A program made the translations under genes and the position numbers. A model generated the notes under the pieces. The model was not told the DNA's origin, did not search any database, and was given only the letters and a program-made list of their open reading frames with translations. Positions 1 through 35,211 of a stretch of 64,000 nt of DNA are shown here, in pieces (position 1 is the stretch's first letter; every line of letters starts with the position of its first letter). Source of the DNA: Planctomycetota bacterium (GTDB lineage: Bacteria; Planctomycetota; B15-G4); NCBI GenBank assembly GCA_029259745.1, contig JAJDEO010000041.1, positions 19,374-83,373 of the forward strand, in the 5' to 3' direction.

Positions 1-313
1 TGACGAGGAGACGCGGCACGAGACCTCGGATGACGCGCGCCGCAAGGAGTGCGAGGGCGCCGGCCCACGCGCCGAGCACATTGGGGTTCGCGAAGGGACC
101 AACGGGACGCCAGGCCACGAGCGATTCGGCGGCCACGGCGTCGCGCGCCTCGGTCGCGACGAGCAGCGTGAGGCTCGCCGCCAGCGCGACGATGAACACG
201 GGCGCCGCGCGCAGCCCGCCGGCATGTCCGAACACGCGCCGCGCCGCGAGGAAGACGAGCCCGTGCCCGAGACCCGTCGCCGCCGTCCACTGCACCTGGA
301 GCACGTCCGCACT
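1..313 (-). CDS. Membrane protein, partial (continues beyond the window start). It is in the same frame as the upstream 326..583 ORF but separated from it by one in-frame TGA.
   Basis: The minus-strand frame has very high GC3 and translates to repeated hydrophobic helices (…QVQWTAATGLGHGLVFLAARRVFGHAGGLRAAPVFIVALAASLTLLVATEARDAVAAESLVAWRPVGPFANPNVLGAWAGALALLAAR…). The plus-strand ORFs here (30..407, 224..733) are R/E/D-rich antisense artefacts. A possible GTG start lies near 313. Confidence 0.35.
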
Positions 314-325
314 CTGCAGCGACGT

Positions 326-583
326 CACGCGCCAGGTGCTGAACGCGAGCGCGACGAGCGCGATGACCGTTGTGATCTCCGGGAACGCGAGCGCGACGCG
401 GCTCTGACCCCGGCGCGTGACGAGCCCCAGCGCCGTGAACCCGAGGAACGCGGCGGCGAACAGCAGGTGCGCGGTCCACGGGTTCGCGGCCGCCGCCGGG
501 ACGAGCGGCGCGACGACGGCATAGACGAACAGCACGACGAACACCGAGCGCCGCTCGAGCGACGACGGCGTCGAGTCGTTCAC
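326..583 (-). CDS. Small membrane protein of about 85 aa with two predicted TM helices. It may be the N-terminal part of a larger membrane protein gene interrupted by an in-frame TGA at 326-328.
   Basis: The GTG at 583 overlaps the GT39 stop (GTGA junction). GC3 is high. The translation reads VNDSTPSSLERRSVFVVLFVYAVVAPLVPAAAANPWTAHLLFAAAFLGFTALGL… and there is no ATG start. Confidence 0.3.
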
Positions 584-2448
584 TTCACCGCTCGCCACCA
601 GACGTACGCAACGTCCGCGGACGACTCGGCGAGGCTCCAGACCCCGCCGCACTCGAGCCGGCCGTCGAGCCACAGCGCGCCCTCGCGCGCGTCGGTCGGC
701 GCGAGTTCACGCGGCGTGACGACGTACTCGTAGCCCTGGTCGAGCCAGTATCGGAGCGACGCGGCGAAGAGCACCTCATCGCCATCCGCGGTGACGGTTG
801 CGATCGGCAGGCGCACGAGATCGGGAACGTCCTCGGCGAGGAAGAAAATCGGTGCGATCACGCGCTCGCCGCCCTCGGCTTCGATGAGCTCCCAGACGTT
901 CTTCGTCGTGAGCGCATGAGCTTCGTCGATCACTTCCTTGTGCTGGCCGAAGTAGTCCGGAGCGAAGTCCGTCGAGAAGTACGCGGTCTGCGGACGCGGC
1001 TGGACGTCGACGAGCGAGAGCCCCACGAGCCCGAACGCGAACATGCTCGCGAGCGCCGCCGGCACGACGCCGAGGATGAACCACGGGGCCACGGAGACCG
1101 AGGCCACGACCGAGCGCTTCTCGCGCGTCAGCGTACGCAGCGCGAGTGGAATGGCGTAGACGATCGCGCCGACGACGAGCAGCGTGTACCAGCGTTCGGG
1201 CTTCGGCTCGTCGGCCGTGCCCATGACGTCGTCGGCGGTGACGACGAGCAACGCCGTCCAGACCATCAGCGCCGCGCCGCGCATCCAACCGGCGAACTTG
1301 TCCGAACGCAGCGTCAGGCCGTGGATGCCGAGCGCGACGACGAGCGGCGTCAGCGGCACGAGGTAGCGCAGCTTCGTCGCGGGCCAGACGACCGACACCG
1401 CCACGAGCACGACGAGCGTGACGATCAACGCCACGGCGCGACGGTCGCCCACCTTCACACCGCGCAGGAACGCCGGCACGCTCGAGGCCGTGGCCAAGGC
1501 CATCGTGACCGGCCAGGCGAAGAGCCCCGTGACGAACAGGTAGAGCACGTTCGACGCGAGCCAGCTCTTCACGCCGCCCGTCATCAGCGCGAGCCACGGC
1601 ACCTCACTCGGGAAGCGCGCGACGGGCCCGGTTGCCTCCACCGCGATCTCGGGGACCACGCCGAGCCGGTAAAGCAGATACAGCGGGTTGACCGAGTACG
1701 TCGCGCTGCCGAAGAGTTCGATGTTGCGCCACCACCACGGCGCCTGGCACAGCACGGCGACGGCCACGGCACCGAGACCGACACCGAGAGCTCGACCGAC
1801 GGCGGTGCTCTCGGTACGTCCCCGCGCGCGCGCCGTGAGCAGCAGCGTCACGAACGGCACAGGCAGCAGCACGAGGCACTGGTAGTTCAGGAGCCAAAGG
1901 GCACCGAGCACGACGCCGAGCTTGAGCAACGACGGGCGCGCCGCGCCGAGCAGGTCGACGAGCAGCACGACGCCAAGCGCCTGGGCCGCGTAGAGCGAGC
2001 CGTTGCCCGCCGCATCGACGGCGACGAAGCTCAGCGCGACGAGCGCCGTCGCCAGCGCAGGCAAACCGTCGGGTGCACCGACGCCGCTCTCCGTGAGGCG
2101 ATCGACGAGTTTCCACGTCATGACGAGCAACAGCAGCGCCGCGACGAACGACGCGCTGCGGAGCCCCGTGAAGGGATCGACGCCGAAGAGCGTTGCGAAG
2201 CCGGCACCGATCAGCGGCCACAGCGGCGCGTGCTGATCGGCGAGGTCCTGCGGGAACACCTCGCCTTCACCGACGGCGAAGGCCGTGCCGCGCTCGAAGC
2301 CCGCCGCGAACCCCTCCCCCGCCATCAAACTGCGCGCCACGCCGACATCGAGCAGCACGTCACCGCGCGGGTCGTCGTGGTGGCCGAAGACGGACACTCG
2401 CAGCACCACTCCCGCCACGATGACGGCCAGGCAGAGCCAGACTCTCAC
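580..2448 (-). CDS. Glycosyltransferase family 39 (PMT/ArnT-like) integral membrane glycosyltransferase
   Basis: The 622-aa ORF has more than 10 predicted TM helices. Its N-terminus carries a DD motif (VFGHHDDPRGDVLLDVGVARSL) typical of the PMT_2/GT-C fold, and it has a soluble C-terminal domain. The start overlaps the upstream gene. Confidence 0.7.
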   Translation of the reverse strand: MRVWLCLAVIVAGVVLRVSVFGHHDDPRGDVLLDVGVARSLMAGEGFAAGFERGTAFAVGEGEVFPQDLADQHAPLWPLIGAGFATLFGVDPFTGLRSASFVAALLLLVMTWKLVDRLTESGVGAPDGLPALATALVALSFVAVDAAGNGSLYAAQALGVVLLVDLLGAARPSLLKLGVVLGALWLLNYQCLVLLPVPFVTLLLTARARGRTESTAVGRALGVGLGAVAVAVLCQAPWWWRNIELFGSATYSVNPLYLLYRLGVVPEIAVEATGPVARFPSEVPWLALMTGGVKSWLASNVLYLFVTGLFAWPVTMALATASSVPAFLRGVKVGDRRAVALIVTLVVLVAVSVVWPATKLRYLVPLTPLVVALGIHGLTLRSDKFAGWMRGAALMVWTALLVVTADDVMGTADEPKPERWYTLLVVGAIVYAIPLALRTLTREKRSVVASVSVAPWFILGVVPAALASMFAFGLVGLSLVDVQPRPQTAYFSTDFAPDYFGQHKEVIDEAHALTTKNVWELIEAEGGERVIAPIFFLAEDVPDLVRLPIATVTADGDEVLFAASLRYWLDQGYEYVVTPRELAPTDAREGALWLDGRLECGGVWSLAESSADVAYVWWRAVK

Positions 2449-3332
2449 GCGTCGTCCTCCTGATCTTCGTCGAAGTCGGGCGTCCCGATCTCGTCGGCAC
2501 GTCGGGCATCCTGCCAGTCGTCGTAGAGCGGATCGAGGTCGCGGATGTCCGCGCCTGCCTCGAGCCGCGCGAGCACGTCGCGCAGCGGAGTGACGATCAG
2601 CAGCGCTTCACGCGGACTCTCTGCGCGCACCGAGGCAAGCCGCCGCTCGGCCTCCGAGAGATCGCGGCGCGCGGCGCGCACGGCTCGGTCGGTGAAGAGC
2701 GATCGCAGGCCGCGCTCCACGAGCAACCGACCGAGCACCATCATGTCGAAGGTGTCCTCGGCGTCGGCGTGGCGCAGGTGCTCGATGGCGATCTCGGTGG
2801 GCGTGTCGCCGTAGCGACGCTCGACGGCGAGGGCGAAGCCAGGGTCGCGATCGCGACGTGCAACGATGAGCTGACCGAGCGCCGAGTGAAGCCGCGCCGA
2901 GTCGTGCAGGTCGAGGCCCTGCTCGAGGAGTTCGAGCCCCGCGTCGACGATCGCGTCCTTGCGCCGTGGGTCGGACGTGCGGCGCGCCTCCGACGCGATG
3001 AGCTGATAGGCGAGGTACTCGCGCACGTCGTCGAAGCCGGGATGCAGCTCGAGCAGCGCTCGCGCAAGGAGCTCGATCTCGCGACTCTCGCCGCGCTTCT
3101 GCTCGCGGTCGAGACGCGTCCACAACGCCGCCGACGCGATCGCCTTGATGGGTCCGAGCGGTGCCAGGGCGCGCGCGAGGGGTTCGGTGGGAAGGCGTTC
3201 GTCGCTCGCGTTCCGACTCGACACGAAAGCCGCAGCAGCGAGCAAGACGACACCCAGCGCCAAGCGCAGGCGTCGACGCCCGGCAAGCGCCACCGTCGCT
3301 CCGTCGACAACTCGCGACTGGGCGTCACTCAT
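2445..3332 (-). CDS. Hypothetical periplasmic protein with a signal peptide or anchor and an acidic C-terminal tail
   Basis: The ORF-track ORF 2445..3986 was trimmed because its first 218 aa are Arg-rich junk. The start MSDAQSRVV sits in an ATGA overlap with the stop of the upstream membrane gene (3329-3332). A hydrophobic segment LALGVVLLAAAAFV follows. The rest is helical-looking and ends DFDEDQEDDA. Confidence 0.55.
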   Translation of the reverse strand: MSDAQSRVVDGATVALAGRRRLRLALGVVLLAAAAFVSSRNASDERLPTEPLARALAPLGPIKAIASAALWTRLDREQKRGESREIELLARALLELHPGFDDVREYLAYQLIASEARRTSDPRRKDAIVDAGLELLEQGLDLHDSARLHSALGQLIVARRDRDPGFALAVERRYGDTPTEIAIEHLRHADAEDTFDMMVLGRLLVERGLRSLFTDRAVRAARRDLSEAERRLASVRAESPREALLIVTPLRDVLARLEAGADIRDLDPLYDDWQDARRADEIGTPDFDEDQEDDA

Positions 3333-4252
3333 GGCATCGCCTGCCTGCGCGCCAACGACACGCCAAAGACCGCCGTCACGACGAGCACCGCCATCCAAAC
3401 CGGCCACATCATCGGAGGGTCGATCCGGACCACCACCGCGAGCAAGCCCGCGAGGCACGCCGTCTCGAAGCGGAAAGCACTCGCGCCAGCGAGCACGGCG
3501 AAGAGCCCGAGCAGCAACGCCGTCATCCCGGTCTTCGAAAGCGGCAAGCGTGTCTGGCTCATCGGCCGCTCGCCGATCTCGAGCGTGGCCGGGGAAGACG
3601 TGAAGAGCACGCCATGACTCGCCCGCAGGGTGACAAAGAGGTCGCCCGTGGCAGGACGCATGTCGGGGATCGGGACGACGGCGCGGCGCTGGGCGACGAG
3701 CGGCTTGTCGATGAGCTGCGTCGAGCGACCGCGGCGGACGTCGACCGCGACGTGCCCGGTCGGCGCGGACGCCATGATGACGTCGAAGGCGAGATCGAAG
3801 GGGCCGCTGGCCTCTGAGGGCAGAGAGAAGCGCCACTCGACGGAGGCCGTCGTGCGCGCGACCTGCACGCCGACGACATCTTCGGGAACCGTGATCTGGC
3901 CCGCGACGAGGCGCGCCACGCCGGCCATGACGACGACGAGCCAGCCCGCGCCCGTTACGGCCCCGAACGTGCGTCCGAGCGTCCAACTCAGCGACGACAT
4001 CGGGCGCAGCGCAAGCACCTGCTCGAAGCCGCCCGCACGGTCGGCAGTGAGCTGCCCCGCGACGAGCGGCAGGACGAGCAGCGCCGCGAACACGGTGACG
4101 AGCGGCGTGAGCACCGTCGCGGCGAGCTCGGGCGACGGCATGCCCGCCACGAGGAGGCCGGCGAGCAATCCGGCAACGGCCGCGATCGTCAGCGAGCGCA
4201 GCGTGAGCATGCGCCGAAACGTGCTGCCCGCGATGACCGCCAGCGCGATCAC
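3329..4252 (-). CDS. Membrane protein, putative permease component of the adjacent ABC transporter
   Basis: The 307-aa protein has N-terminal TM helices, a central soluble domain of about 130 aa and two C-terminal TM helices. It starts with GTG one nucleotide after the ABC ATPase stop. Confidence 0.55.
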   Translation of the reverse strand: MIALAVIAGSTFRRMLTLRSLTIAAVAGLLAGLLVAGMPSPELAATVLTPLVTVFAALLVLPLVAGQLTADRAGGFEQVLALRPMSSLSWTLGRTFGAVTGAGWLVVVMAGVARLVAGQITVPEDVVGVQVARTTASVEWRFSLPSEASGPFDLAFDVIMASAPTGHVAVDVRRGRSTQLIDKPLVAQRRAVVPIPDMRPATGDLFVTLRASHGVLFTSSPATLEIGERPMSQTRLPLSKTGMTALLLGLFAVLAGASAFRFETACLAGLLAVVVRIDPPMMWPVWMAVLVVTAVFGVSLARRQAMP

Positions 4253-4253
4253 G

Positions 4254-4979
4254 TCAAGCGGCCTCGCTGCCGAGCAACGTCAGCAGGCCGTCACGCTCGT
4301 CGGCGCCGGACAGCAACTCATCGGCCTCGCCCTGGGCGACGATGCGTCCTTCGCGCAGGACGACGACGTGCGTGGCGAGATCGCGGAGATCCTCGATCCG
4401 GTGCGTCGCCATGAGCAGGCAGGCACCGAGCGCGACCTGCTCGCGAAGATGCGCGCGCACGTCGTGGATGACGAGCGAGTCGAGCGACGAGAAAGGTTCG
4501 TCGAGCAGCAGCAGCGGCGGACGGTCGAGCAGCGCCTGCGCCAGGAGCACGCGCCGTGACTGCCCCAGCGAGAGGGTGCCGAGGCGCCGATCGATGAGGC
4601 CATCGAGCCCCGTGATGCGGACGACGTCGAGCACGCGCTGACTCGCGCCCTTCACGGCCTGCAGCGCCGCGAGTTCATGCAGCACCGCGCCGACGCTCAG
4701 CGTGGGCGGCCAGCGCAGACGCTCGGGCGCATAGCCGATCGAACCGCGCAAGCTGCGTGCCCCGAGCGGCTGACCGAGCACCTGCGCCGTGCCGGCCAGC
4801 GGCGCGGCAAGACCGGCGAGGATCCTCAGCAGCGTCGACTTGCCCGAGCCGTTGGGACCCACGAGCCCCCAGCACTCGCCCGCTTGGACGTCGAGATCGA
4901 CGCCGGCGAGCGACGGTACGCGTCGCCCGAGACTGCGGCGGTAGGCATGTGTGAGTCCACGGATCTCGACGGCGGCCAT
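4254..4979 (-). CDS. ABC transporter ATP-binding protein
   Basis: It carries Walker A GPNGSGKST, the ABC signature LSLGQSRR, Walker B LLLLDEPFSSLD and an H-loop ATH. The ORF-track start at 5012 is TTG, so I used the ATG (MAAVEIRGL) at 4979. Confidence 0.85.
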   Translation of the reverse strand: MAAVEIRGLTHAYRRSLGRRVPSLAGVDLDVQAGECWGLVGPNGSGKSTLLRILAGLAAPLAGTAQVLGQPLGARSLRGSIGYAPERLRWPPTLSVGAVLHELAALQAVKGASQRVLDVVRITGLDGLIDRRLGTLSLGQSRRVLLAQALLDRPPLLLLDEPFSSLDSLVIHDVRAHLREQVALGACLLMATHRIEDLRDLATHVVVLREGRIVAQGEADELLSGADERDGLLTLLGSEAA

Positions 4980-5123
4980 CGGTCCAGCATACCCATCCGG
5001 CACGACGCGCAACGAGCCAGCAGACGCGCCGGAAACTCATTCGGTCGAGGACGCGTCATACGAGCAGCCGACTGGCCGTCCAGCCATCGCCCCGCGACGG
5101 ACAGCTGGAGTACCCTGTCGGCC

Positions 5124-5675
5124 ATGTGGACGCTCGAGACATCGACGGGAAAACGCATCGCCCTCACGCGCCTGCCCGCGATGGTCGGGAGTGCCGCCGA
5201 TGCCGACATCACGCTCGCCCACGAGTCGATCGACCCGATCCACGCGGCGCTGTCCGACACCGAAGACGGCCGCCTTCAGGTCGCGGCGATCGGCGATGCC
5301 GTCATCGGCATCGAGGGCGCACGGGTCGAGCGCGGGTCGCTCGCGGCCGGCGAGCAGCTCGTCATCGGCGTGATCGCCTTCACGGTGCACCACGCCGGCG
5401 CGGCGGCCCCGATCGAGCCCCAGCTCGCCACGCGCCGACGCCCCAGCGCGACGCGCCCGTCCCCCGCCTCGATGCCCACCGCGCGCGTCACGGCCGGTGC
5501 GGGCCGGCGCGGAACGGCGCTTCAGTTCAACGCCTACGAGAAGCGCCGCGGGCTCATCCACACCGACTTCTCGCAGCTCGACATCTGGGGCAAGCTGGTC
5601 GCGCTGCTGATCCTGCTCGCTCTCGTCGCCCTGCTCGGCTGGGGCATCAGCGTCGGCATCGCCTCCCTCATGTGA
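5124..5675 (+). CDS. FHA domain-containing membrane protein
   Basis: The start MWTLETSTGK is in frame within ORF 4677..5675. The FHA-like core reads GKRIALTRLPAMVGSAADADITLAHESIDPIHAAL…GDAVIGIEGARV. A C-terminal TM helix reads LVALLILLALVALLGWGISVGI. Confidence 0.7.
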   Translation: MWTLETSTGKRIALTRLPAMVGSAADADITLAHESIDPIHAALSDTEDGRLQVAAIGDAVIGIEGARVERGSLAAGEQLVIGVIAFTVHHAGAAAPIEPQLATRRRPSATRPSPASMPTARVTAGAGRRGTALQFNAYEKRRGLIHTDFSQLDIWGKLVALLILLALVALLGWGISVGIASLM

Positions 5676-6091
5676 CGTGCGCACTGCGTCGCGAGCTCGC
5701 CGTCGTGGCGGCTCGTGACGAAGCCCCCAGGCGCCCGACGCGCTGGCCGAAGACGGTGAAGCCTGACGATTTCGTTCGTCTGCGGTCAGCCCGTCCCGAT
5801 CGCGGGAGATCCGCGGACGTCCCCTCAGACCGCCGACTGCGGGCTCGTCGAGGCCTTCCAATGCCGCGAGTTGGCTCGTTGGGCGTCGCGACACGCTAAA
5901 TCACGTCGGCGAGGGGACCCGCGCGCCGCCGGTTTCCGTTCTCCTTCATGGGGGACGTCCTCTTCCTCCTCCGTGGACTCCCCCGCCCATGTGGCCGTCC
6001 CTCTGGTGTCATCCCGATCGCCAGGCCCGCTACACTCCGCCGGCTCCTTTCGAGCTCGCAATCCCCCGCAGTGACAACTGAGAGCCATCCG

Positions 6092-7324
6092 ATGAATCGC
6101 GCGAGTCTACCCCTCGTCGTGCTCCTCTTCGCAAGCCCCATCAACGACGCCAACCGCTCATGGAGCGAGGGCGCCGCAGACGACATGTTCGGTCACTCGG
6201 TCTCCGAGGCCGGCGACATCAACCAGGATGGCTTCAGTGATGTCATCGTGGGTGCGCCCGGCACGGAAGACCGCACGGGACGTGCCGTCGTCTACGACGG
6301 ACATGAAGACGAGATCGTGCACGATTGGAAAGGCGAGAACCCGGGTGACGAGTTCGGCTGGTCGGTGAGTACGGCAGGCGACATCGACGACGACGGCTTC
6401 GCTGATCTCGTCGTCGGCGCGCCGGGCTTCGACGACGACCGCGGCAAGGTCTACGTCTTCGACGGCAAGAAGAGTGAGATCATGTTCGAGATCGACGGTG
6501 ACGAACCCGGCGACCGCTTCGGGTTCTCCGTCAGCAACGCCGGCGACGTGAACAACGACGGCTTCGACGACATCGTCGTCGGTGCGCCGGGCAAGGACGA
6601 CAAGAAGTACGGCGAAGATGCTGGTCGCGCCTACGTCTTCTCGGGCAAGAAGGCCAAGAAGCTGCACGAGTTCAAGCCGCTCTCGGACTCCGAGCAGCTC
6701 GGCTGGAGCGTCGCCGACGCGGGCGACGTCAACATCGACGGATTCGGTGACGTCGTGCTCGGCGCCCCCGGCGCGCGCAAGAAGAAGAAGGATCCGCCGA
6801 CTGGTGCCGTGCGTCTCTACCACGGCAAGAAGGGCAAGCTGCTGCACACGATCTACGGCAACGAAGAGGGCGACCGCTTCGGACACGCCGTGCACGGAGC
6901 AGGCGACTGCAACGGAAACGGCGCGGCCGACATCGTGATCAGCGCCGACACGGCGGCGTCGTATGTGAAGATCATCGACGGCAAGAAGGCCGAGGAACTC
7001 TACACGCTCGAGACGCCGCGCGAAGGCATACGCTACGGGTGGTCGGTCGGATCGGCGGGTGACTTCGACGGAGACGCCTACGGCGACGTCGTGATCGGTG
7101 TTCCCGGCGGCAATGACAGCTTCAAGCCGTCCGTGATCGTCGTGTCGGGGAAAACCGGCGAGGAGCTGCGCACCCGCACGAGTGACGACCCCAGCAGCGG
7201 CTTCGGCATCTCCGTCTCCGGCGCGGGTGACCTCAACGCCGACAGCTTCAGCGAGATCGTCGTGGGCGCTGACGGCAAGGGCGACAAGCAGGGCTCTGCC
7301 TTCGTGTTCGACGCGAAGGACTGA
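6092..7324 (+). CDS. Secreted FG-GAP repeat protein (integrin-alpha-like beta-propeller)
   Basis: The signal peptide is MNRASLPLVVLLFASP. About 7 repeats of the form FGxSVSxAGDxNxDGFxDxxVGAPG (FG-GAP/Cage motif) follow. The ORF-track ORF was trimmed to this ATG. Confidence 0.8.
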   Translation: MNRASLPLVVLLFASPINDANRSWSEGAADDMFGHSVSEAGDINQDGFSDVIVGAPGTEDRTGRAVVYDGHEDEIVHDWKGENPGDEFGWSVSTAGDIDDDGFADLVVGAPGFDDDRGKVYVFDGKKSEIMFEIDGDEPGDRFGFSVSNAGDVNNDGFDDIVVGAPGKDDKKYGEDAGRAYVFSGKKAKKLHEFKPLSDSEQLGWSVADAGDVNIDGFGDVVLGAPGARKKKKDPPTGAVRLYHGKKGKLLHTIYGNEEGDRFGHAVHGAGDCNGNGAADIVISADTAASYVKIIDGKKAEELYTLETPREGIRYGWSVGSAGDFDGDAYGDVVIGVPGGNDSFKPSVIVVSGKTGEELRTRTSDDPSSGFGISVSGAGDLNADSFSEIVVGADGKGDKQGSAFVFDAKD

Positions 7325-7350
7325 CACATTCCGCAGGTGAGACCGAGAAC

Positions 7351-8664
7351 ATGAAGAAGTCGATGACCGCACTGGCCTGGATCTGCGCCGTCACCGTCGC
7401 CGCGGCACCGGGCGACGACCCCGAGAGTCGCGTCTGGCAAGGCGAGGGCGAAAAAGCCGACGAGCGGTACGGTGCGTCGGTTTCCACGGCCGGTGACTTC
7501 GACGCCGATCAGCGCGACGAGTACCTCATCGGCATCCCCGGTCACTCGAAGAAGGGCGTCGACGCAGGCGCCGTCGTGATCGTCTCGGGGCGCACCGGCA
7601 AGGTGCTCCACACGCTCTACGGCAAGAAGGCCGGCGACCGCTTCGGACATTCCGTCGACGGTCTGCGGGACGTCAACGCCGACGGTTTCGCTGACATCAT
7701 CGTCGGGGCGCCGGGACACAAGGACGGCACCGGCGCCGCGTATGTCTACCTCGGCAAGAAGGCCAAGGAGCGCGTCGTGCTCGAAGGGACGACCGTCGGC
7801 GAGCAGTTCGGCTGGAGCGTCTCGGCGGCCGGTGACATCAACCAGGACGGATTCTTCGACATCATCGTCGGATCGCCGAGCTACGACGGCGCGGCCGGCG
7901 ACGACTGCGGACGCGCGACCGTCTTCTCCGGCAAGTCGAAGGGCAAGAAGGCCATCGAACTCTACAGCTGGGAAGGCGAGACGCCCGGCGCGCAGTTCGG
8001 TTGGTCGGTGACGCACACCGAGAACATCTACCGCACGGACCTGGACACGACTCCGATCACGCAGCATGTCGCCGTCGGTGCGCCCGGAGCGGCGGCGAAG
8101 TCGGGCGGCGTCGCGAAGGGACTCGTCTACATGTACGACGGCCTCAACGGCGAGTTGCTGCGCACGATCGAAGGACGACGTAAGGGCCAGCGTTTCGGCC
8201 ACGCGATCCACGCCGCCGGCGACGCCAACAGCGACAGCTTCGGCGACCTCATCGTCGGCTCCGACTCCGTCCCCGGCGGGGCGGACCTCATCTCCGGTCG
8301 CAACGGCAAGGCCCTGCACCGCTTCGAACCCGAACGTCCCGACATGCGCTTCGGCTGGGCCGTCGGCGGCGGTGGCGACTTCGACAACGACAGCTTCGAC
8401 GACGTCGTCGTCAGTGCGCCGGGTGAGTTCAAACCCGGCGACACGACCGACCCCGATCGCGTGCCGTACGTGCGCGCCTACTCGGGCAAGACGGGCAAGC
8501 TACTGCTCGAGATGCGCGGCGGACCGCTCGAAGATCGCTTCGGAATCTCCGTCGCCGTCGCGGGCGACAACAACGTCGACCGCTACGACGAGATCATCAT
8601 CGGCGCCGACCAGATCGGTGTCCGCGCAGGCTTCGTCGAGGTGCACTCACTGCACCCCGAGTGA
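7351..8664 (+). CDS. Secreted FG-GAP repeat protein, a paralogue of the upstream gene
   Basis: The signal peptide is MKKSMTALAWICAVTVAAAP. It has the same FG-GAP repeat architecture as 6092..7324 and starts 26 nt downstream of that gene. Confidence 0.8.
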   Translation: MKKSMTALAWICAVTVAAAPGDDPESRVWQGEGEKADERYGASVSTAGDFDADQRDEYLIGIPGHSKKGVDAGAVVIVSGRTGKVLHTLYGKKAGDRFGHSVDGLRDVNADGFADIIVGAPGHKDGTGAAYVYLGKKAKERVVLEGTTVGEQFGWSVSAAGDINQDGFFDIIVGSPSYDGAAGDDCGRATVFSGKSKGKKAIELYSWEGETPGAQFGWSVTHTENIYRTDLDTTPITQHVAVGAPGAAAKSGGVAKGLVYMYDGLNGELLRTIEGRRKGQRFGHAIHAAGDANSDSFGDLIVGSDSVPGGADLISGRNGKALHRFEPERPDMRFGWAVGGGGDFDNDSFDDVVVSAPGEFKPGDTTDPDRVPYVRAYSGKTGKLLLEMRGGPLEDRFGISVAVAGDNNVDRYDEIIIGADQIGVRAGFVEVHSLHPE

Positions 8665-8674
8665 GCGCAGCGAC

Positions 8675-9796
8675 TCAGCTCGCGGCGACTGCTCGCCAGA
8701 GGTCTTCGAGCGTTCGTGCCGAGGTCTCCCAGCTCCAGCGCTCGGCTGCGCGCCGCCCCGCTTCGATGCGGGCGGCGCGTTCGTCATCACGCGTGAGCGC
8801 TCGGGCGAGCGCGTCGGCAAAAGCTTCCGAACCGCGTTCGAGGTCGACGAGCCAACCGCCCTCGGCGAGTGTGTCGGCGACGGCCGGTGAGCGCGCCGCG
8901 ACCACCGGGACGCCGAAGCGCTGAGCGTCGACGATCGGAATCGAGAAGCCCTCGGTGATCGAGGGCACGGCGAGGGCGTCGGCGCCGGCGAGGAGCAGCG
9001 CGAGTTCCTCGTCGACGATCGGACCGAGGACGCGGACGGCGTCGGGTGGCAGGCCGAGGCGCTTGGCGCGCTGCGTGATCGCGATGGCCTGCGTGTCGCC
9101 GACACGACCGGCGAGAGCGAGCACGACGTCACTGAACTCCGGACGCGCGCGGAGTGTCGCGAGCGCGGCCATGAGTTCGCCGGTGTTCTTGTGACGCGCG
9201 GGTGGGCCGATGTGCAGGACGAAACGCGTGTTGAGCTTCGTCGCGATGCGCAGGGCCGCGACGTGGTCGAGCGGCGCGGCGCCGGGATCGAGCCACGGGG
9301 TCGCCGCGTTGGGCACGACGTGCACGCGCTGGGGCGAGACGCCGACGGTGTCCGTCAGCTCACGCGCTGTCGCCGCCGAGACAGCGACGATGCCCGCCGT
9401 GCGTGCGAGGTTCGGCGCCAGGCGCCGACGCCCCCAGAGCTTTCGTGCGCGGCCGATGCCGATGTCGTCACGCAGAAAACGCAGGTCGTGGATCGTGACG
9501 ACCGCGGGCACGTCGCGCAGGCGCGGAACCGGCAGCGCGCCGAGGTGGATGAGATCGGCGTCGACGTCGCGCGCGAGACGCGCGAGGCGACGGCCGGCGA
9601 AGGCGCGTCCGACGGGCGTCGTCGTGCCGTCGAGCACGGTGGTTGCCAGACCGGGGAGCGGGTCGATGCCCGAGCGCACGGCGTGCACGACCTCGACGTG
9701 CCCGCCAGAGAGGTGCTCGGCGCCGAGTGCACGCAGCCGCGTCGCAGCCCCTGAGGGCGTGCCGTCCAACATCGTTGCATCAACGAGGACCTTCAT
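8675..9796 (-). CDS. Glycosyltransferase family 4 (GT-B fold)
   Basis: The start MKVLVDATML is in an ATGA overlap with the upstream gene's stop. The C-terminal EX7E region reads PSITEGFSIPIVDAQRFGVPVV. The 36-aa Arg-rich N-terminal extension in the ORF track was rejected. Confidence 0.8.
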   Translation of the reverse strand: MKVLVDATMLDGTPSGAATRLRALGAEHLSGGHVEVVHAVRSGIDPLPGLATTVLDGTTTPVGRAFAGRRLARLARDVDADLIHLGALPVPRLRDVPAVVTIHDLRFLRDDIGIGRARKLWGRRRLAPNLARTAGIVAVSAATARELTDTVGVSPQRVHVVPNAATPWLDPGAAPLDHVAALRIATKLNTRFVLHIGPPARHKNTGELMAALATLRARPEFSDVVLALAGRVGDTQAIAITQRAKRLGLPPDAVRVLGPIVDEELALLLAGADALAVPSITEGFSIPIVDAQRFGVPVVAARSPAVADTLAEGGWLVDLERGSEAFADALARALTRDDERAARIEAGRRAAERWSWETSARTLEDLWRAVAAS

Positions 9797-10881
9797 CGCG
9801 CCCGGCTCCACTCCGTGAGCACGTCGAGCATCGCTCGCGCCGAGCCCTCCGCGGAACGTTGCGCCACGAGTGCGCGCCCCGCGTCGCGCGCCGTCGTGCG
9901 CCACGACTCATCGTCGAGAACACGGACGATCGCATCGGCGAGCGAGAGCGCCGACGCGGCGTCGAACATCAACACGGCCTCGCCGCATGCCTCGGCGACA
10001 AAGGCCTGACGACTGACGATCACCGGAGCACCCGCCGCCAGCGCCTCGAGCGCGACGAGCCCGAAGCCCTCGAGCCACGACGGCACGACGACAACCGCAG
10101 CGCGAGCGTACTCGGCGGCCAATGCATCGTCGCCGAGCGGCCCGGCGAAACGCATACGCGGCGCAGCGCCGTGGGCGTTGAGCTGCGCGGACGCCGAACC
10201 CGGCGCACCGACGAGTGTCGCGCGCACGCCGCGCTCTTCGAGCCGCGGGTCACAGAGCGCGTCGAGCACGACGCCGAAGTTCTTCTTTGCGCGCAGCGTC
10301 CCGACGCAGAGGACACCCTCACGCGGAACCGTCGACTCGTCGACCTGCGGCGGAACGACACCGAGCGGCACGACGCGCAGTCGCTCAACGGTCCCTGCAT
10401 GCAACGCAGAAACGTCGTCGGCCGTGCGCTGCGAAGGACACACGATGCGCCAAGCGTTGCGAGCCGTGTGCGCGAGCCGGGCGCGCGCTGTGACTCCGCG
10501 CTCGCCGACGGCCGGGATCCCTCGCGATGACGCGCCCCACGGCACGTCATACACCGTGGCGATCGCGTCGATACCGCCGCGGACGGGTAGCGCCGTCACC
10601 GGCGACCACCAGACATCACACCCGGCTGCTCGTGCCGCTGCGACGCCATGCGTCTCGCGCCACGCCCACGGACGCACGTCGCCCTCGACGGCGCCGACCG
10701 CCTGCGAGGGATCGAGCCCGATGGCCTCGGCACACGCCACCGACGGTGCGACGGCAATCAGCTCGACATCGTCGCCTGCGAGTTCGCGCACGGCCGTGAC
10801 GAGCGCGCGCTGCGCTCGCTCGACGCCGGTCGGGAACGCAGCGCCCGCGCGCTGGATCGACGCGTCAACGGCGATTCGCAT
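9793..10881 (-). CDS. Glycosyltransferase family 4
   Basis: It starts MRIAVDASI and carries the GT4 motif PSWLEGFGLVALEALAAGAPVIVS. Its 5' end overlaps the upstream lipoprotein gene by 17 nt. Confidence 0.8.
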   Translation of the reverse strand: MRIAVDASIQRAGAAFPTGVERAQRALVTAVRELAGDDVELIAVAPSVACAEAIGLDPSQAVGAVEGDVRPWAWRETHGVAAARAAGCDVWWSPVTALPVRGGIDAIATVYDVPWGASSRGIPAVGERGVTARARLAHTARNAWRIVCPSQRTADDVSALHAGTVERLRVVPLGVVPPQVDESTVPREGVLCVGTLRAKKNFGVVLDALCDPRLEERGVRATLVGAPGSASAQLNAHGAAPRMRFAGPLGDDALAAEYARAAVVVVPSWLEGFGLVALEALAAGAPVIVSRQAFVAEACGEAVLMFDAASALSLADAIVRVLDDESWRTTARDAGRALVAQRSAEGSARAMLDVLTEWSRAR

Positions 10882-13552
10882 CCACCTCGCCGTAGATGTC
10901 GCGCCCGGTCAGCCCGTCGGCGCCGTTCCACCCGCTTGCCGCGAGTCGGATCGGACTCGACCATGCCAGTTCGGTGTCGGCCAGCACGACGCGCACGTAG
11001 ACGAAACGCTCGCCCTCGGCGGGCACGTCGAAGGCGAACTCCTCGGTTGCGCGCGCCACACCGCCTTCGAACTCACGCACGTCGATGCGCTTACCATCCG
11101 CGACGATGTCGATACGTTCGATGAGCGTGCCGAGTCCGTCGACATCCACCGTGAGCACGCCCGGGCCCGCCGCGCACTGCGCCGACTCCCCCATCACGAC
11201 GTCCTCACCGCCCGCCGCACTGCGCCATGCGCACCACAACGACACGCGCACGGTCGACGCGAACGTCCGCCGCGCGTGGAGCGCGTCGAACACAGCAGCG
11301 CGATCGATCGACCGCACCCACGCGCCACCGAACGCGCCATCGGATGACTGGTGATCAGACGCCGCGACGAAACCGAAGTGCAGGCCGCGGTCGAGATTCG
11401 GGAGCAGGTAGCGGCCGACCATGAGCCCGGGAATCGCGCGTGGTGTCCCGTCGCCTTCCGAGCTGCCGCGGTAACCCTGGAACACCTCGACAACGCGATC
11501 GAAGCGCGGCTCGAAGTCGCGCCAGTCGAAGACGATCGGGCTGTTGGCGAACATGCCGGCCGGCGTGTGCGGGATCGTGAGGACCTCGGCGGGATCGAGC
11601 ACGTCCCAGAGGTTCTCCGGTCGGTCGGCGCGCACATCGTCGCGCAGTGGCTCGAACGTCTTGCGGTAGGCGGCGATCGGGAGCGCGTCGCCGCGCCCGA
11701 TGACGTTGCGATGACCGGTCATCGCGTCGGCGCGTTCGTAGCCGCGCATGTTGGCGAAAGTGCCCTCGACGTCGTAGGCATCGGCCCACGTCATCAGTCG
11801 CCACCAGTCGTACGGCAGCATGTGCTCGAAGTGATCCGTGACGGCCATGTACTCGAGTCGACCGACGTCGAGTCCGTAGCGAAGCGCATCCGACACCGGG
11901 CCGTCCCAGTTGCTCGAGCAGCGCGAGACGTCCGTGTGACGGTGCAGGTCGCCGAGCGCCAGCGTGTAGCTTGCACCACCGTGCTCGCGACTCACTCGCG
12001 CACTGTCGGCAGCGGGCGTGGCGAGCGCTGTGAGCTTCCACGCGGCCGCCTCGTCGAGTGCGATCGCGGGCGCCGTGTCGAACTTGCGGATGCGTGACGA
12101 CGTGATGCCCGTCGGGTTCGTCGTGACCGGCTTCCACCACGAGAGCGAGTCGACCATGATCTCACGGCCGTTGCGGTCCTCGGTAGCGCGCTCACGACGA
12201 TCACCGGCCACGGCAAACACCGTGCCGCCCCCGCGCAACGAGCCGACTGCGAAGGGTGCCGCGCAACGCCCCTCGCTGCCTTCGACACCGATGTGATGAC
12301 GCCCGGCTGCGTGCCAACCCTCTGGTGACAGCGCGCTCCAGTACGTGAACCAGATCGACGTCCGCCAGCCCTTCCCGCCCACCGTGCGTTCGGCGCGCTG
12401 TTGGAACGTCGGGTCGAGTGGGTCTTGTGCATCCGACGGCAGGGGCAGGCCGCGGAAGAACAGCATGAGCGTGCCCGAGCCGTCGACGTGCAGCTGCGGC
12501 TGCTCGCAGTTGCTGCCGAGCGCGTCGTTGAGCCCGTCGACGAAACGGTCTGCCAACGGCGCGACGCGCTCGCCGTCGATGCCGACGATCTCGATCGTGC
12601 GCTTGTTGTGCAGCGCGACTTCGAGCGTGTTGCGCGAACCCTCGCGTCCCCAGTTCTCAGGGCCGACGTGATAGGCGACGTAGAGGCGTTCGCCGTCGGG
12701 CGCTGCCGCCACGGACGGCTGGGCTTCGAAGCGCGGCGTCGACGTGACGCGGCGCGGCGCGGACACCGACAGCGCGGCGTCGACGCGTTCGATGCGCGCG
12801 AGGTGGATGTCGTAGTCGCCGTCGGTGGCCTCGTCCCAGACGACGGCGAAGCGGCCCGGAGCCGTGGGCGTTGCGTCCGGATACCAGCACGCCGTCCGCT
12901 CGGCGCCCTCAGCGCGCGGACGCGAAACCGCCACGGGCGCCGTCCATGCGCCCGTCGCTCCGTCGAGCAGCGCCGCGCGAATCGCGAGTCCGTCGCGATC
13001 AACACGCTGCCAGACGAGCAGCAGACCGCCGGCGCCGTCGTCGGCGAAAGACGGGTGGAGCTGATGGACATCGCCGTCAGCGGGCGGCGTGACACGCGTC
13101 GGCTCACCGACGACGTCGCCCAGGGCGTCGGCGTCGCCGCCATCCGGCGCGATCACGAGATGGCGCAGCGACCAGCCCGGGCCGTCGTCGTCTTCCTGCG
13201 ACCAGACGAGGTGCAGACGATCGGCGCCGTCCACGGCCAGCGCCGTCCCGAAGACTCGCGTGCCGGGCTCGTGCACGACCGTCGCGCCGGCATCCCAGCG
13301 CGGCACCGACCGCAACGCGAGCGCATCACGCTCCCCGTCCCAGTCGACGAAAGCCGTCCACGGCCCACCGCTCGCACGCGTCGCCACGGATGGGAAGTCC
13401 TGAGCCGGAACCGACTCCGCAAAGATCCGCTGCTCGACGGCGGCGTCGACATCGGCCGACGGCAAGGCATCGGCAAGAGAGCCACCGCGATCCTCGCCGC
13501 AAGCAGCGAGGGCGAGAAGGGCCAGACAGGAGAGCTTCGGGGCAAGGCGCAT
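10865..13552 (-). CDS. Large lipoprotein with an N-terminal repeat or propeller-like region and a C-terminal PHP/DUF3604-like metal-dependent hydrolase domain
   Basis: The lipobox reads LALLALAACG. The N-terminal half repeats segments of the form LHLVWSQEDDDGPGW, LLLVWQRVDRDG and FAVVWDEATDGDYD. The C-terminal half carries His-rich motifs (GDLHRHTDVS…YMAVTDHFEHM) resembling PHP-type phosphoesterases (DUF3604). Confidence 0.6.
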   Translation of the reverse strand: MRLAPKLSCLALLALAACGEDRGGSLADALPSADVDAAVEQRIFAESVPAQDFPSVATRASGGPWTAFVDWDGERDALALRSVPRWDAGATVVHEPGTRVFGTALAVDGADRLHLVWSQEDDDGPGWSLRHLVIAPDGGDADALGDVVGEPTRVTPPADGDVHQLHPSFADDGAGGLLLVWQRVDRDGLAIRAALLDGATGAWTAPVAVSRPRAEGAERTACWYPDATPTAPGRFAVVWDEATDGDYDIHLARIERVDAALSVSAPRRVTSTPRFEAQPSVAAAPDGERLYVAYHVGPENWGREGSRNTLEVALHNKRTIEIVGIDGERVAPLADRFVDGLNDALGSNCEQPQLHVDGSGTLMLFFRGLPLPSDAQDPLDPTFQQRAERTVGGKGWRTSIWFTYWSALSPEGWHAAGRHHIGVEGSEGRCAAPFAVGSLRGGGTVFAVAGDRRERATEDRNGREIMVDSLSWWKPVTTNPTGITSSRIRKFDTAPAIALDEAAAWKLTALATPAADSARVSREHGGASYTLALGDLHRHTDVSRCSSNWDGPVSDALRYGLDVGRLEYMAVTDHFEHMLPYDWWRLMTWADAYDVEGTFANMRGYERADAMTGHRNVIGRGDALPIAAYRKTFEPLRDDVRADRPENLWDVLDPAEVLTIPHTPAGMFANSPIVFDWRDFEPRFDRVVEVFQGYRGSSEGDGTPRAIPGLMVGRYLLPNLDRGLHFGFVAASDHQSSDGAFGGAWVRSIDRAAVFDALHARRTFASTVRVSLWCAWRSAAGGEDVVMGESAQCAAGPGVLTVDVDGLGTLIERIDIVADGKRIDVREFEGGVARATEEFAFDVPAEGERFVYVRVVLADTELAWSSPIRLAASGWNGADGLTGRDIYGEVDANRR

Positions 13553-13661
13553 CGTCGGGATTCTAAGGATGTCGTGTCGGAGTTGGCGAGGAACGCGAGC
13601 GCAGAGAGCTGTCGAATGCGCGTCATCACGTCAGGATGACAATGACGACGGCGCTTTGCGT

Positions 13662-14825
13662 CTACGTGTTGGGTGTGGGACGCGCGTGCGCGCCTGGGCA
13701 ATGCTCGACCAACGCGCGGTCGATGTCGACGAGCGCGGAGGCGGCGCGATCCCAGGTGAGGTGGGCGACGGCCTGGCGCGCCGCGGCACCGAGTTCGTCG
13801 CGCGTGGCGGCGCTCGTGATGAGATCCTCGAGCGCAGCGGCGAGGGCGCGTGGGTCGTGCGGGTCGACGGTAATCACGGCGTCGCCGGCGAGATCGGACA
13901 TTGGCGTGTTCGTGGACGTGACGACGGCGCGCCCGCAGCGCAGGGCCTCGAAAACGGGGAGCCCGAAGCCCTCGGCGAACGACGGGTACGCGACGACATC
14001 GGCCGTGCGGAGGAGCGCCGCGAGGGTTGGCTCGTCGACCTCGCCCGTCGTGGCGACCCGTGCATCGGACCTCGTCGCCGCGGCTGCGAGGCGCTCTTCG
14101 AGTTGCGGCACGCCCCACCCGCGCGGGCCCACGAGCAGCAGCGCCGCGCGACCGTCAGGGCGCGCTTCGGTGGCGTCGAGGATCGCTTCGTGGTTCTTGC
14201 GTGGCTCGCGCGTGCCGAGTGCGACGACGAGCACCTCGGGGCGTCGCAGCCGAGCGCGCTGCAACGCCGCCTCGACGAGCGCCCCGTCGTCGGGTTGCGG
14301 CGTCGCGTCGATGTGATCGACGCCGTGAGCGACGACATGCACGTCTCGCGCGCGCGCCATCCCGTGTCGCACGACATCGGCGGCAACGCGTTCACTCGGC
14401 ACGACGAGCGCGGCAGCCCGAGCCGCTGCGGCGCGCACGCGCTGCTCGACGTCGCGCCGGAAGCCGGGCGGATGCCAGTCGTTGTCGTCGAGGAAGACGA
14501 GGTCGTGGATCGTCACGACCTGTTGTGCCGCACGCACAGGCGCATAGACGAGGTCGAGATGGTGGAAGACATCGACGCCGCCGAGCGCATCGTCGGCCGC
14601 CAAGCCCAGCACGCGCTGCACGCGCGCGGGAATGCGTCCGCGCACGACGCCGGCGCCGAGCGGCGCGAGGTCGGCGCGCGGCCGACGCCACGCCCGCGCG
14701 AACCCGTGCGCCTCGACATCCTCACGCCGACGCAACGCACGGAACGTCTCGCGCGCCACGCGTGCGATCCCGGTGGCATGCCAGAGCGCCGGACGGACGT
14801 CCACACCCACACGCAGCCGCGTCAC
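13662..14825 (-). CDS. Glycosyltransferase family 4
   Basis: The GTG start is preceded by GGAGG and overlaps the flippase stop (GTGA junction). The body (RLRVGVDVRPALWHATGIARVARETF…) carries the EX7E region YPSFAEGFGLPVFEALRCGRAVV. The 177-aa Arg/Gly-rich N-terminal extension in the ORF track was rejected. Confidence 0.75.
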   Translation of the reverse strand: MTRLRVGVDVRPALWHATGIARVARETFRALRRREDVEAHGFARAWRRPRADLAPLGAGVVRGRIPARVQRVLGLAADDALGGVDVFHHLDLVYAPVRAAQQVVTIHDLVFLDDNDWHPPGFRRDVEQRVRAAAARAAALVVPSERVAADVVRHGMARARDVHVVAHGVDHIDATPQPDDGALVEAALQRARLRRPEVLVVALGTREPRKNHEAILDATEARPDGRAALLLVGPRGWGVPQLEERLAAAATRSDARVATTGEVDEPTLAALLRTADVVAYPSFAEGFGLPVFEALRCGRAVVTSTNTPMSDLAGDAVITVDPHDPRALAAALEDLITSAATRDELGAAARQAVAHLTWDRAASALVDIDRALVEHCPGAHARPTPNT

Positions 14826-16279
14826 GCCTGGGCCTCCACGGGGCCGCCGGCCTCGACACCGAGGTTCAACGGCCACGTCCCCGACAGCGCCACACCGACA
14901 ACGCCGGCGACGAAACCGAACGCCACGCGCACGCCGACATGCAGCGCCTCGTCCTGCCACCAGGCCGTCGCGCTCAGCGCCGCGAGGCCGGCACTCACCG
15001 CCCCCGCACACGCGAGCGGACGCAGATACGCACTTCGCCCGGCCACAAGCCCCGTGCGCTGGCGCGCCACGACCGTCGACGCCACCACGATGAACGCCTC
15101 GGTCGCCACCGTCGCCCAAGCCGCGCCGAGAATGCCGTAGCGCGGAACCGTCACGAGGTTGAGGACGATGTTCACGACGACGCCACCCGTCGAGATCCAC
15201 ATCATCGTGCGCTGCCCCTCGGAGGCCAGCACGACGAGCACATGCGGATAGGCGACGAAGACGCACACCGTCGCGAGCGCGAGCACGGCGAGGGCCGGAC
15301 CGCCCGGCGCGTACTCGACCGGGAAGATCAGGGCGATCACGTCCTGCGCCACCCATGGCAGCGTTGCCGCCACGCAGACGCCGAGCGAGAAGAGGAAGCG
15401 CGTCGAGCGTGTCAGCACGAGGCCGAGCTGTTCGGGCGCCGCCGGCCAGAGGCGCGAGAAGATCGGGAAGATGACCTGACTGAAGAGCACCGGCACCATG
15501 AGCACGAAGGTCATGACGCGGTAGGCCGACGCGTAGTAGGCGACGGCCTCGTCACCCACGAGCGGCCGCAGCATGAGCGTGTCGACGTAGAAGTACACCG
15601 TGGCCATCGCCGCAGCGACGCCAGCCGGCCACGACTCGCGCCACAGCCAGGCTCGTCGCTCCACCGAGGCGCCAAAGCTCGGCTCGAGCACGCGGCGCCC
15701 GGCCGTCCATGTCGACACGCCGTAGACGACGCCGGCAAGCCCGAAGGCCACGACGAACCATCCCGGCTCGTGCACGCCGAGGGCGACCAAAGCGAGCGTG
15801 CCGAGGAGCCACGTCGACTGACCGAGACACTGGGCGACGACGATCGGCCGGAAGGCCATATCGACCTGCAGCACGGACGCGATGCCCGCCGGCGCGTGCG
15901 CGAGAAGATGCAACGACGCCACGATCGCGAGCCACGTCGTCGCGTTGCCGGGGCCATCGAAGGCCAGCGCGAGCGTGGCCACGAGCCCGATGCCGACCCA
16001 GGCGATGCGCGCCTTGAGCCCGATCAGCATACCGACGAGCTCGGCCGCCTCCTCGCGCCGCCGCGACGCCTCGCGGACGACGATCTGCCCCGCACCGAAG
16101 TCGAGCACGTTCGTGAGCAGCAGGAAGAGCGTGAAGTAGAACGCCGTGACGCCGTAGGTCGCGGTGTCGAGGTGGCGCGGGAGGATGATCGCCGTGACGG
16201 CGAAGGCTAGCAGCGCCGTGTAGAGCCGGCCGCTCACCTGCACCGACGACTGCCGCGCCACGCGCTTCGAGAGGTTCAT
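14822..16279 (-). CDS. Polysaccharide biosynthesis protein or oligosaccharide flippase (Wzx/MOP superfamily)
   Basis: The 485-aa protein has about 12 predicted TM helices. Its N-terminal region (RLYTALLAFAVTAIILPRHLDTATYGVTAFYFTLFLL) matches the PST-family pattern. Confidence 0.75.
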   Translation of the reverse strand: MNLSKRVARQSSVQVSGRLYTALLAFAVTAIILPRHLDTATYGVTAFYFTLFLLLTNVLDFGAGQIVVREASRRREEAAELVGMLIGLKARIAWVGIGLVATLALAFDGPGNATTWLAIVASLHLLAHAPAGIASVLQVDMAFRPIVVAQCLGQSTWLLGTLALVALGVHEPGWFVVAFGLAGVVYGVSTWTAGRRVLEPSFGASVERRAWLWRESWPAGVAAAMATVYFYVDTLMLRPLVGDEAVAYYASAYRVMTFVLMVPVLFSQVIFPIFSRLWPAAPEQLGLVLTRSTRFLFSLGVCVAATLPWVAQDVIALIFPVEYAPGGPALAVLALATVCVFVAYPHVLVVLASEGQRTMMWISTGGVVVNIVLNLVTVPRYGILGAAWATVATEAFIVVASTVVARQRTGLVAGRSAYLRPLACAGAVSAGLAALSATAWWQDEALHVGVRVAFGFVAGVVGVALSGTWPLNLGVEAGGPVEAQA

Positions 16280-17381: not shown

Positions 17382-17441
17382 CTGGTGAGGCTCCTCCGGT
17401 GTGGTGTCGTTTGCGCGCACGGAACCGGAGGCCGCGGCACA

Positions 17442-17460
17442 ATCGCTCAATGATAGCGAT
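17442..17460. promoter_or_regulatory. Inverted repeat ATCGCT-N7-AGCGAT in the divergent promoter region between the ArsC/LMW-PTP-like gene and the ATP-grasp gene
   Basis: A perfect 6-bp inverted repeat with a 7-bp spacer lies about 60 nt upstream of the minus-strand ATG at 17381. It could be an operator site. Confidence 0.2.
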
Positions 17461-21353: not shown

Positions 21354-21440
21354 GTTGCGCTCCGTGGGGTGGGCCCACACGGAGTCTACAGGGCGTGCGC
21401 TCCGTCGAGTTGCGATCGGCGGATAGTGCCGGCATCGCGA

Positions 21441-35004: not shown

Positions 35005-35211
35005 GCGCGGGTGCTCCTTCGGGACGGCGGATCTCGACGAGGCGCGCAAGCGTCGCACGCCCAGCGCGACCTCACAACGAGCATCACCGCGCGCCCCGCG
35101 TCCTGTGTCGGCGTCAGCACGACGAGGAAACTGCGACGCACGTCGCACGAACCTCGGCCCACCTGCGACAATCCCGCAACGACACCTCTCAGCCCCCTCG
35201 ACGCGCCCGCC

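Follow-up and report, generated by a model that had tools for sequence, protein, structure and literature searches.

A 64,000-nucleotide stretch of the genome of an uncultured planctomycete (GTDB lineage Planctomycetota, B15-G4; assembly GCA_029259745.1, contig JAJDEO010000041.1, positions 19,374 to 83,373 of the forward strand; G+C content of about 70%), called the window here, begins with a minus-strand operon of five genes (Table 1). In the order of transcription, they encode an ATP-binding cassette (ABC) ATPase, an orphan membrane protein of 307 amino acids (aa), a 295-aa anchored periplasmic protein, a 622-aa protein with the predicted GT-C fold of glycosyltransferases, and a Wzy_C membrane protein. 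Reading the junctions directly from the sequence, the stop codon of the ABC gene (TGA, 4254-4256) is separated by a single base (4253) from the GTG start of the 307-aa gene at 4252, and the other genes are joined by 4-nt overlaps: ATGA at 3329-3332 (307-aa to 295-aa gene), GTGA at 2445-2448 (295-aa to GT-C gene) and GTGA at 580-583 (GT-C to Wzy_C gene). An earlier note, made from the letters of this DNA alone, had described a run of overlapping, translationally coupled genes between 580 and 5012; the overlap at 2445-2448 was absent from its list, the junctions that it did give were found in the sequence and conserved in 11 loci, and the five genes, joined at these junctions, form a real, translationally coupled operon. 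The start of the ABC gene is more likely the ATG at 4979 than the TTG at 5012, because the ATG is used in the gene call of Logan contig L001, which is identical to the window sequence and runs beyond the window edge, and because the homologues align only from residue 8-12 of the longer form onwards. The intergenic region between this gene and a divergently transcribed FHA gene spans 4980-5123. Promoter and terminator scans gave results at or below shuffle expectation, using a consensus that may not apply to Planctomycetota; the operon DNA, searched against plasmids, matched only a 58-bp ABC fragment; and no description of this gene combination was found in literature searches.

A scan of GTDB species genomes gave 13 loci for comparison (designated by L numbers). 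The comparison of synteny that the earlier note had called for showed an identical order of the ABC, 307-aa, 295-aa and GT-C genes in 11 of the 13 (independent loci from Planctomycetota metagenome-assembled genomes, with 40-60% protein identity), and the Wzy_C gene comes next after the GT-C gene in 10 of those 11. At 41 of the 43 junctions examined in the 11 related loci, a candidate start codon overlaps the preceding stop codon by 4 or 1 nt; as the start chosen was always the one nearest to the stop, the weight of the evidence lies in the lack of intergenic space and not in the exact overlap. The most distant locus, L013, has the four-gene core only, with a GT-C protein 32% identical to that of the window and a second gene weakly linked to the 307-aa family (hhalign probability 41%, E 2.7e-4); the core is also retained in L019 and L021, where the 307-aa family is at its most divergent. 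The ABC module and the GT-C gene co-occurred strictly in all the loci examined, these divergent ones included, and therefore the module and this GT-C family constitute an obligate unit, as the linkage proposed earlier for the window would have it. The Wzy_C gene is a frequent addition to the module, not a universal one. One complete copy of the module (L007, JBLIMM010000046.1, labelled Pseudohongiellaceae) is on a contig of 18.5 kb that binning had assigned to a family of Gammaproteobacteria; the remaining copies all come from Planctomycetota or Phycisphaerales, and the label is probably a binning error, or a sign of horizontal transfer if it is not.

Table 1 Genes of the operon and of its neighbourhood, in window coordinates.
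Feature	Position	Strand	Details	Basis
ABC transporter ATP-binding protein	4254..4979	-	241 aa from ATG 4979; alternative TTG 5012 gives 252 aa	PF00005
Orphan 307-aa membrane protein, presumed ABC membrane subunit	3329..4252	-	GTG start at 4252	Context and topology
295-aa anchored periplasmic protein	2445..3332	-		Signal anchor, conserved operon position
622-aa predicted GT-C-fold glycosyltransferase, unclassified PMT_2-like family	580..2448	-		Fold model, homologues
5' part of 678-aa Wzy_C membrane protein	1..583	-	Gene runs off the window	PF04932
183-aa tail-anchored FHA-domain protein	5124..5675	+	Divergently transcribed	FHA/GltG similarity
Two secreted FG-GAP repeat proteins	6092-7324 and 7351-8664	+		PF01839
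Upstream gene train (Wzx/GT4/metallohydrolase/GT4/GT4)	8675..16279	-		Pfam and NCBIfam
Wzx/MOP flippase	14822-16279	-	About 12 kb upstream of the GT-C gene	PF01943, 74.5 bits
GT4	13662-14825	-	GTGA overlap with the Wzx gene	
Lipoprotein DUF3604/CehA-like metallohydrolase	10865-13552	-	895 aa, LAAC lipobox	Weak CehA-McbA similarity
GT4	9793-10881	-		Pfam/NCBIfam
GT4	8675-9796	-		Pfam/NCBIfam

The assignment of the 622-aa protein comes from its predicted structure and from its homologues. The HMM search for PMT_2, GT39 and GT83 that the earlier note had suggested was negative for the window protein, which has no Pfam or NCBIfam match even at E=10, and its family alignment gave nothing in a sequence-profile search against the PDB. 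Homologues number 54, almost all of them from metagenomes of Planctomycetota; 27 of 50 match PMT_2 (PF13231) at E<=0.01, ten checked singly score 27.7-32.9 bits over residues ~72-239 (gathering cutoff 26.1), and the only Pfam match of another kind among the 50 is one DUF2298. The AlphaFold (AF2) model built with the family alignment (pLDDT 92, pTM 0.93) has approximately 13 transmembrane helices and a C-terminal periplasmic alpha/beta domain, and every Foldseek match in the PDB with E <= 0.03 is a GT-C-fold enzyme (AglB/STT3, ArnT, AftA, DPY19, Emb), so that on the model the protein is of the GT-C fold. The lowest E-value corresponds to AglB/STT3 (6e-8) and the highest TM-score to ArnT (5f15, 0.50/0.56; 5ezm, 0.48/0.54; ~660 columns at 12-14% identity), and Pmt1/2 are the poorest GT-C match (270-280 columns aligned, TM-score 0.28-0.29). 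The conserved columns of the family are D30-x3-D34 after the first transmembrane helix (TM1), D71-Q-H-x-P-L-W-P, W238/R241/N242 and K359/R361. In GT-C enzymes an essential acidic motif follows TM1 closely, within the first external loop (PMC6801728), and the position of D30 and D34 agrees with this; both residues are nearly invariant, within P-R-G-D-V-L-L-D, and there is no conserved DE motif. K359/R361 and R241 are candidate phosphate-binding residues. The GT66 motif WWDxG was searched for with a regular expression for WWD or WW[DE]xG, which found nothing in the 622-aa protein.

The protein had been described as a GT39-family GT-C glycosyltransferase; the GT-C half of that label stands and the GT39 half does not. 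The GT39 protein O-mannosyltransferases (PMT) share with the 622-aa protein the GT-C superfamily and the expected lipid-phosphate-sugar donor, but PMT (PF02366), PMT_4TMC (PF16192) and MIR match neither the window protein nor any of the 50 homologues, the conserved motif is D-x3-D and not DE, and the structural alignment to Pmt1/2 is partial and the worst within the fold. The similarities to ArnT (GT83) and RgtA-D are these: approximately 13 transmembrane helices with a C-terminal periplasmic domain, the acidic motif after TM1, homologues marginally matching PMT_2, and a sister clade adjacent to lpxA. However, the structure-based identity to ArnT is 12-14%, no NCBIfam ArnT match was found at E<=10, PF02366 does not match, and there is no arn operon context, with no arn-type genes among the window ORFs scanned or within 10 kb in the related loci. 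The likeness to ArnT is at the level of the fold only, and the protein is not an ArnT equivalog, the competing classification that the earlier note had named together with a canonical arn operon elsewhere. The sister GT-C clade, 31-34% identical and devoid of ABC partners, lies in four loci of one lineage (L014 9986-12849; L016 8001-10826; L017 8001-10746; L018 8001-10697) directly upstream of a bona fide lpxA on the same strand (LpxA of 273 aa, 296-307 bits against a cutoff of 226), a hint pointing to lipid A or lipopolysaccharide (LPS). An array of five amidohydrolase genes precedes the sister GT-C gene in three of the four (L016-L018).

The ABC ATPase matches PF00005 (ABC_tran) at E 2e-29 (103 bits), and against NCBIfam and the PDB it shows only generic nucleotide-binding-domain similarity (DrrA/NodI/GldA-like). 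Its 307-aa neighbour has no Pfam or NCBIfam match (E up to 10); a profile search of 1.84 billion representatives returned approximately 20 full-length clusters of its family and no tie to a larger one, and in every context examined the family was found only inside this module, adjoining the ATPase. In the AF2 model (pLDDT 84) the chain begins with a bundle of helices, continues as a beta-sandwich (residues ~121-230) and ends in three helices, and hydropathy gives approximately 3+3 transmembrane segments. The sandwich alone was matched by Foldseek, weakly (E 3e-3 to 2e-2), to CBM6/35/61-like and BcsB-like domains. The invariant features in the family alignment are a D/ERxGGxEQ loop with E77, located between TM2 and TM3, and the FRFETACLAGLLA helix. 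A possible resemblance of this loop to the ExxGTxE loop of ABC-2 permeases is given no weight here. Profile matches of the family to L7Ae in the PDB were discarded as spurious, since the fold differs. Homology to LptF/G was also rejected: hhalign against E. coli LptF and LptG gave a probability of 0.1%, a weak test with single-sequence targets, and no LptF/G appears within the top 50 Foldseek matches of the model. The resemblance to LptF/G would therefore be topological, a predicted order of three transmembrane segments, a beta domain and three transmembrane segments.

The 295-aa protein has one hydrophobic segment (residues 21-39, an N-terminal signal anchor), a conserved motif, EPLAxxLAPLGPxK...LW, in the family alignment, and an apparently helical periplasmic domain. 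Neither Pfam and NCBIfam (E up to 10) nor PDB profiles match it, and there are no detectable relatives outside the module. The acidic C-terminal tail by which the earlier note had characterised it exists in the window and is limited to the three closest relatives. The arrangement of these three genes recalls that of Wzm/Wzt and LptB2FGC, in which the ABC ATPase gene is likewise followed immediately by that of a six-transmembrane partner near LPS-type genes; moreover, TM3 and TM4 are separated by a beta-rich periplasmic domain, as in LptF/G, and a single-pass anchored periplasmic partner follows, as with LptC. On the other hand, neither sequence searches nor Foldseek tie the 307-aa protein to Wzm, LptF or LptG, its beta domain looks CBM-like rather than OstA-like, and the anchored partner, unlike LptC, does not appear to be a beta-jellyroll.

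The further membrane ORFs of the earlier note correspond, in the case of the one starting at 583, to a Wzy_C gene cut by the window edge, which is complete on contig L001 (11866-13902, 678 aa). The protein scores 47.9 bits against PF04932 (cutoff 31.7); neither the Wzy_C domain nor the transmembrane segments extend into its last ~250 residues, and the H-N...E-x-G signature of the family is seen in H314-N315 and E323-W-G-W, invariant across 11 orthologues. There was no NCBIfam match, the PDB sequence search gave nothing, and no PglL_A domain was reported. The hhalign comparison with E. coli WaaL (probability 0.1%) is uninformative for the subtype, be it WaaL ligase, Wzy polymerase or PglL. O-oligosaccharyltransferases are among the members of the Wzy_C family.

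The genes upstream of the operon support the envelope glycosylation setting proposed earlier, with Wzx and three GT4 genes on this side and Wzy_C downstream. Some genes of the upstream train overlap one another and their order is the same in the related loci, where the 895-aa metallohydrolase is kept in the same position between glycosyltransferase genes (44-50% identity). Wzx and Wzy_C are present; no phosphoglycosyltransferase or Wzz chain-length regulator was detected in the scanned window ORFs, and neither a GT2 polyprenyl-phosphate sugar synthase nor a small flippase was found in the conserved neighbourhood of the GT-C gene. A low-molecular-weight phosphatase at 16968-17450, considered as a Wzb, scores as an ArsC-type arsenate reductase and lies outside the conserved locus. 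A 523-aa ORF on the plus strand (13569-15140) was also dismissed, as its tblastn matches arise only because it is antisense to the conserved GT4 gene at 13662-14825 (-); long antisense ORFs in DNA of 70% G+C can appear conserved.

On the other side of the intergenic region, the FHA protein matches Yop-YscD_cpl and FHA, both under the Pfam cutoffs, and the N-terminus of GltG at E 5e-6; it has a C-terminal transmembrane segment at 159-177, and its gene, divergent from the ABC gene, is conserved in 11 of the 13 loci. It is followed by the two FG-GAP genes (PF01839 at E 4e-46 and 4e-27, both products with signal-peptide-like N-termini), and the immediate adjacency of FHA and FG-GAP genes (5124-8664) is as the earlier note had placed it. 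The FG-GAP genes occupy a slot between the last GT4 gene and the FHA/ABC genes (5676-8674 in the window, and the equivalent region in L002-L012, L019 and L021), the content of which varies: two FG-GAP genes in the window and in 2 of the 13 loci (L002, L011); a secreted PA14/PKD/DUF5060 protein of ~940-1010 aa in L004, L012/L019 and L021; a Ser/Thr kinase with a fused FGE-sulfatase domain, its gene adjoining the FHA gene, in L009 (3894-6839); and nothing in at least six loci. The FG-GAP linkage is consequently not a conserved feature of the system, and the proposal that these proteins are its glycosylation substrates finds no comparative support; their Ser/Thr content is ~10%, not a Ser/Thr-rich composition. 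A reading of the locus as GT39, with protein O-mannosylation of the neighbours, should not spread as an annotation. A third FG-GAP-type protein is encoded at 19812-21518 (-) (FG-GAP_2, E 2e-24), approximately 11 kb from the operon-adjacent pair, and therefore FG-GAP genes are not unique to the glycan locus in the window.

Scattered further along the window there are other carbohydrate or envelope-related genes: a SASA sialate-O-acetylesterase/GH2_N protein (35011-37209, +), a 3-keto-disaccharide hydrolase of the DUF1080 type (43067-44680, -), an Acyl_transf_3 membrane acyltransferase (44827-46059, +) and a Sulfotransfer_5 protein (61185-61931, -). Two adjacent genes encode unusual fusions: an N-terminal Rieske [2Fe-2S] domain with a three-domain thiamine-pyrophosphate enzyme (50843-52774, -), and a Rieske domain with a glutamate-synthase-type FMN domain (52799-54553, -).

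Our favoured explanation, held with moderate confidence, is a surface-glycan pathway, LPS or O-antigen-like, whose steps on the periplasmic face are encoded by the operon. The cytoplasmic GT4 enzymes of the upstream cluster would assemble a lipid-linked glycan, which would cross to the periplasmic leaflet via the Wzx-type flippase, the ABC module or both; the 622-aa GT-C protein, using D30-x3-D34, would transfer a sugar from a polyprenyl-phosphate-sugar donor onto this glycan or onto a lipid A-core acceptor; and the Wzy_C protein would polymerise the product or ligate it to the final acceptor. Two copies of the ATPase and two of the 307-aa protein may build an atypical ABC machine, whose CBM-like beta-sandwich, together with the 295-aa protein, would hold the lipid-linked glycan or donor or pass it to the GT-C protein. 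The ABC module with its anchored partner thus most likely delivers or extracts a lipid-linked species, the cargo and the direction being what we infer from this arrangement. The tail-anchored FHA protein would probably put the system under the control of Ser/Thr phosphorylation, a plausible role by analogy with Rv1747 of Mycobacterium tuberculosis, an FHA-regulated ABC exporter under PknF in which an FHA domain is likewise associated with an envelope-tied ABC system (PMC3138270). The kinase gene adjoining the FHA gene in L009 adds to the likeness; the FHA protein differs in being a separate, tail-anchored and divergently transcribed product.

The closest precedents for the proposed pathway are the Gtr-type or three-component systems (GtrII, GmlC, ORF12/GT136 of C. 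youngae), in which a GT-C enzyme encoded in a surface-glycan locus acts on the periplasmic side and decorates O-antigens of Wzx/Wzy or ABC-dependent routes before WaaL-type ligation (PMC11127046); the locus described here has a MOP-family flippase as well. It differs from them in lacking an adjacent polyprenyl-phosphate sugar synthase and a GtrA/SMR flippase, and in the coupling of the GT-C gene to an ABC ATPase and two orphans; no sequence similarity to their GT families was detected. Several observations weigh against the proposed pathway. The presence of Wzx and the ABC module together makes the export route ambiguous, and the acceptor may be a protein. No initiating phosphoglycosyltransferase, GT2 polyprenyl-phosphate sugar synthase or GtrA-type flippase is found among the window ORFs scanned. 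The 307-aa protein, presumed to be the membrane subunit from its adjacency to the ATPase and its six-transmembrane topology, has no detectable similarity to known ABC permeases, Wzm-type included (Pfam, NCBIfam, PDB sequences, Foldseek and the 1.84e9 representatives). The Wzy_C gene is missing from L012/L019 and L013 (present in 10 of the 12 module loci), and the adjacency of the sister clade to lpxA counts as a single observation, because all four loci belong to one lineage.

Among the rival explanations, decoration of lipid A or its core is the one to which we give the most weight, and we consider it unlikely. The GT-C protein would be a functional analogue of ArnT or RgtA-D, the ABC module would flip the donor or extract LPS as LptB2FG does, and the Wzy_C protein would act as a WaaL-type ligase on the same molecule. 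It is favoured by the best global TM-score, that of ArnT (0.50/0.56), by the only Pfam link of the GT-C family being PMT_2, the RgtA-D-like model, by the sister clade adjoining lpxA, by Wzy_C being the O-antigen ligase family, and by the LptF/G-like domain order of the 307-aa protein. However, neither ArnT nor Rgt is matched in NCBIfam at E<=10, no arn or donor-synthesis genes lie nearby, the LptF/G comparisons were negative (hhalign 0.1%, none in the top 50 Foldseek matches), and the conserved Wzx and three GT4 genes argue for a polymer or oligosaccharide rather than a single lipid A substituent.

Protein O-glycosylation, in which the GT-C protein, or the Wzy_C protein as a PglL-like O-oligosaccharyltransferase, would modify the secreted proteins of the variable slot, has the least support of the rivals and is improbable. 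The best Foldseek E-values are indeed to protein-modifying GT-C enzymes (AglB/STT3), the slot, when occupied, often holds secreted repeat proteins, and the Wzy_C family would accommodate such a transferase. Nevertheless, PF02366, PMT_4TMC and MIR are absent from the 50 homologues, Pmt1/2 align over only ~280 columns (TM-score 0.28-0.29), the WWDxG motif is absent, there is no PglL_A among the domains reported for the Wzy_C protein, at least six loci have nothing in the slot and another has a kinase there, and the FG-GAP proteins are not Ser/Thr-rich. Slightly less probable still is that the ATPase and the 307-aa and 295-aa proteins form an ATP-driven signalling or mechanotransmission device in the style of FtsEX or MacB, activating periplasmic enzymes and transporting nothing. 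This would fit a 307-aa protein unlike any known transporting permease, with a large periplasmic domain, an anchored periplasmic partner and a strict coupling to an enzyme gene; against it, the known type VII mechanotransmitters have four transmembrane segments and carry the periplasmic domain directly after the first of them, instead of the 3+3 arrangement, and the invariant charged/polar intramembrane helix of the 307-aa protein (FRFETAC) suggests contact with a substrate.

A further possibility, put forward tentatively, as it is rather doubtful, is that the ATPase and the 307-aa and 295-aa proteins represent an undescribed class of ABC machine, the obligate partner of one orphan GT-C family, which uses ATP to deliver the lipid-linked donor or glycan or to extract the glycolipid product. 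If this is true, an ABC module would be coupled energetically and directly to a periplasmic GT-C enzyme, an arrangement of which we know no example among the characterised pathways. GT-C enzymes decorate bacterial surface glycans extracytoplasmically, the delivery of their donors and acceptors is poorly understood, and the flippases are mostly inferred; an orphan GT-C protein encoded together with an ABC ATPase and with two proteins that, in all contexts examined, were found in this module only offers a tangible candidate for a step of delivery or extraction driven by ATP. The locus marks an uncharacterised envelope-glycan system in the Planctomycetota, a phylum whose cell-envelope biology is debated.

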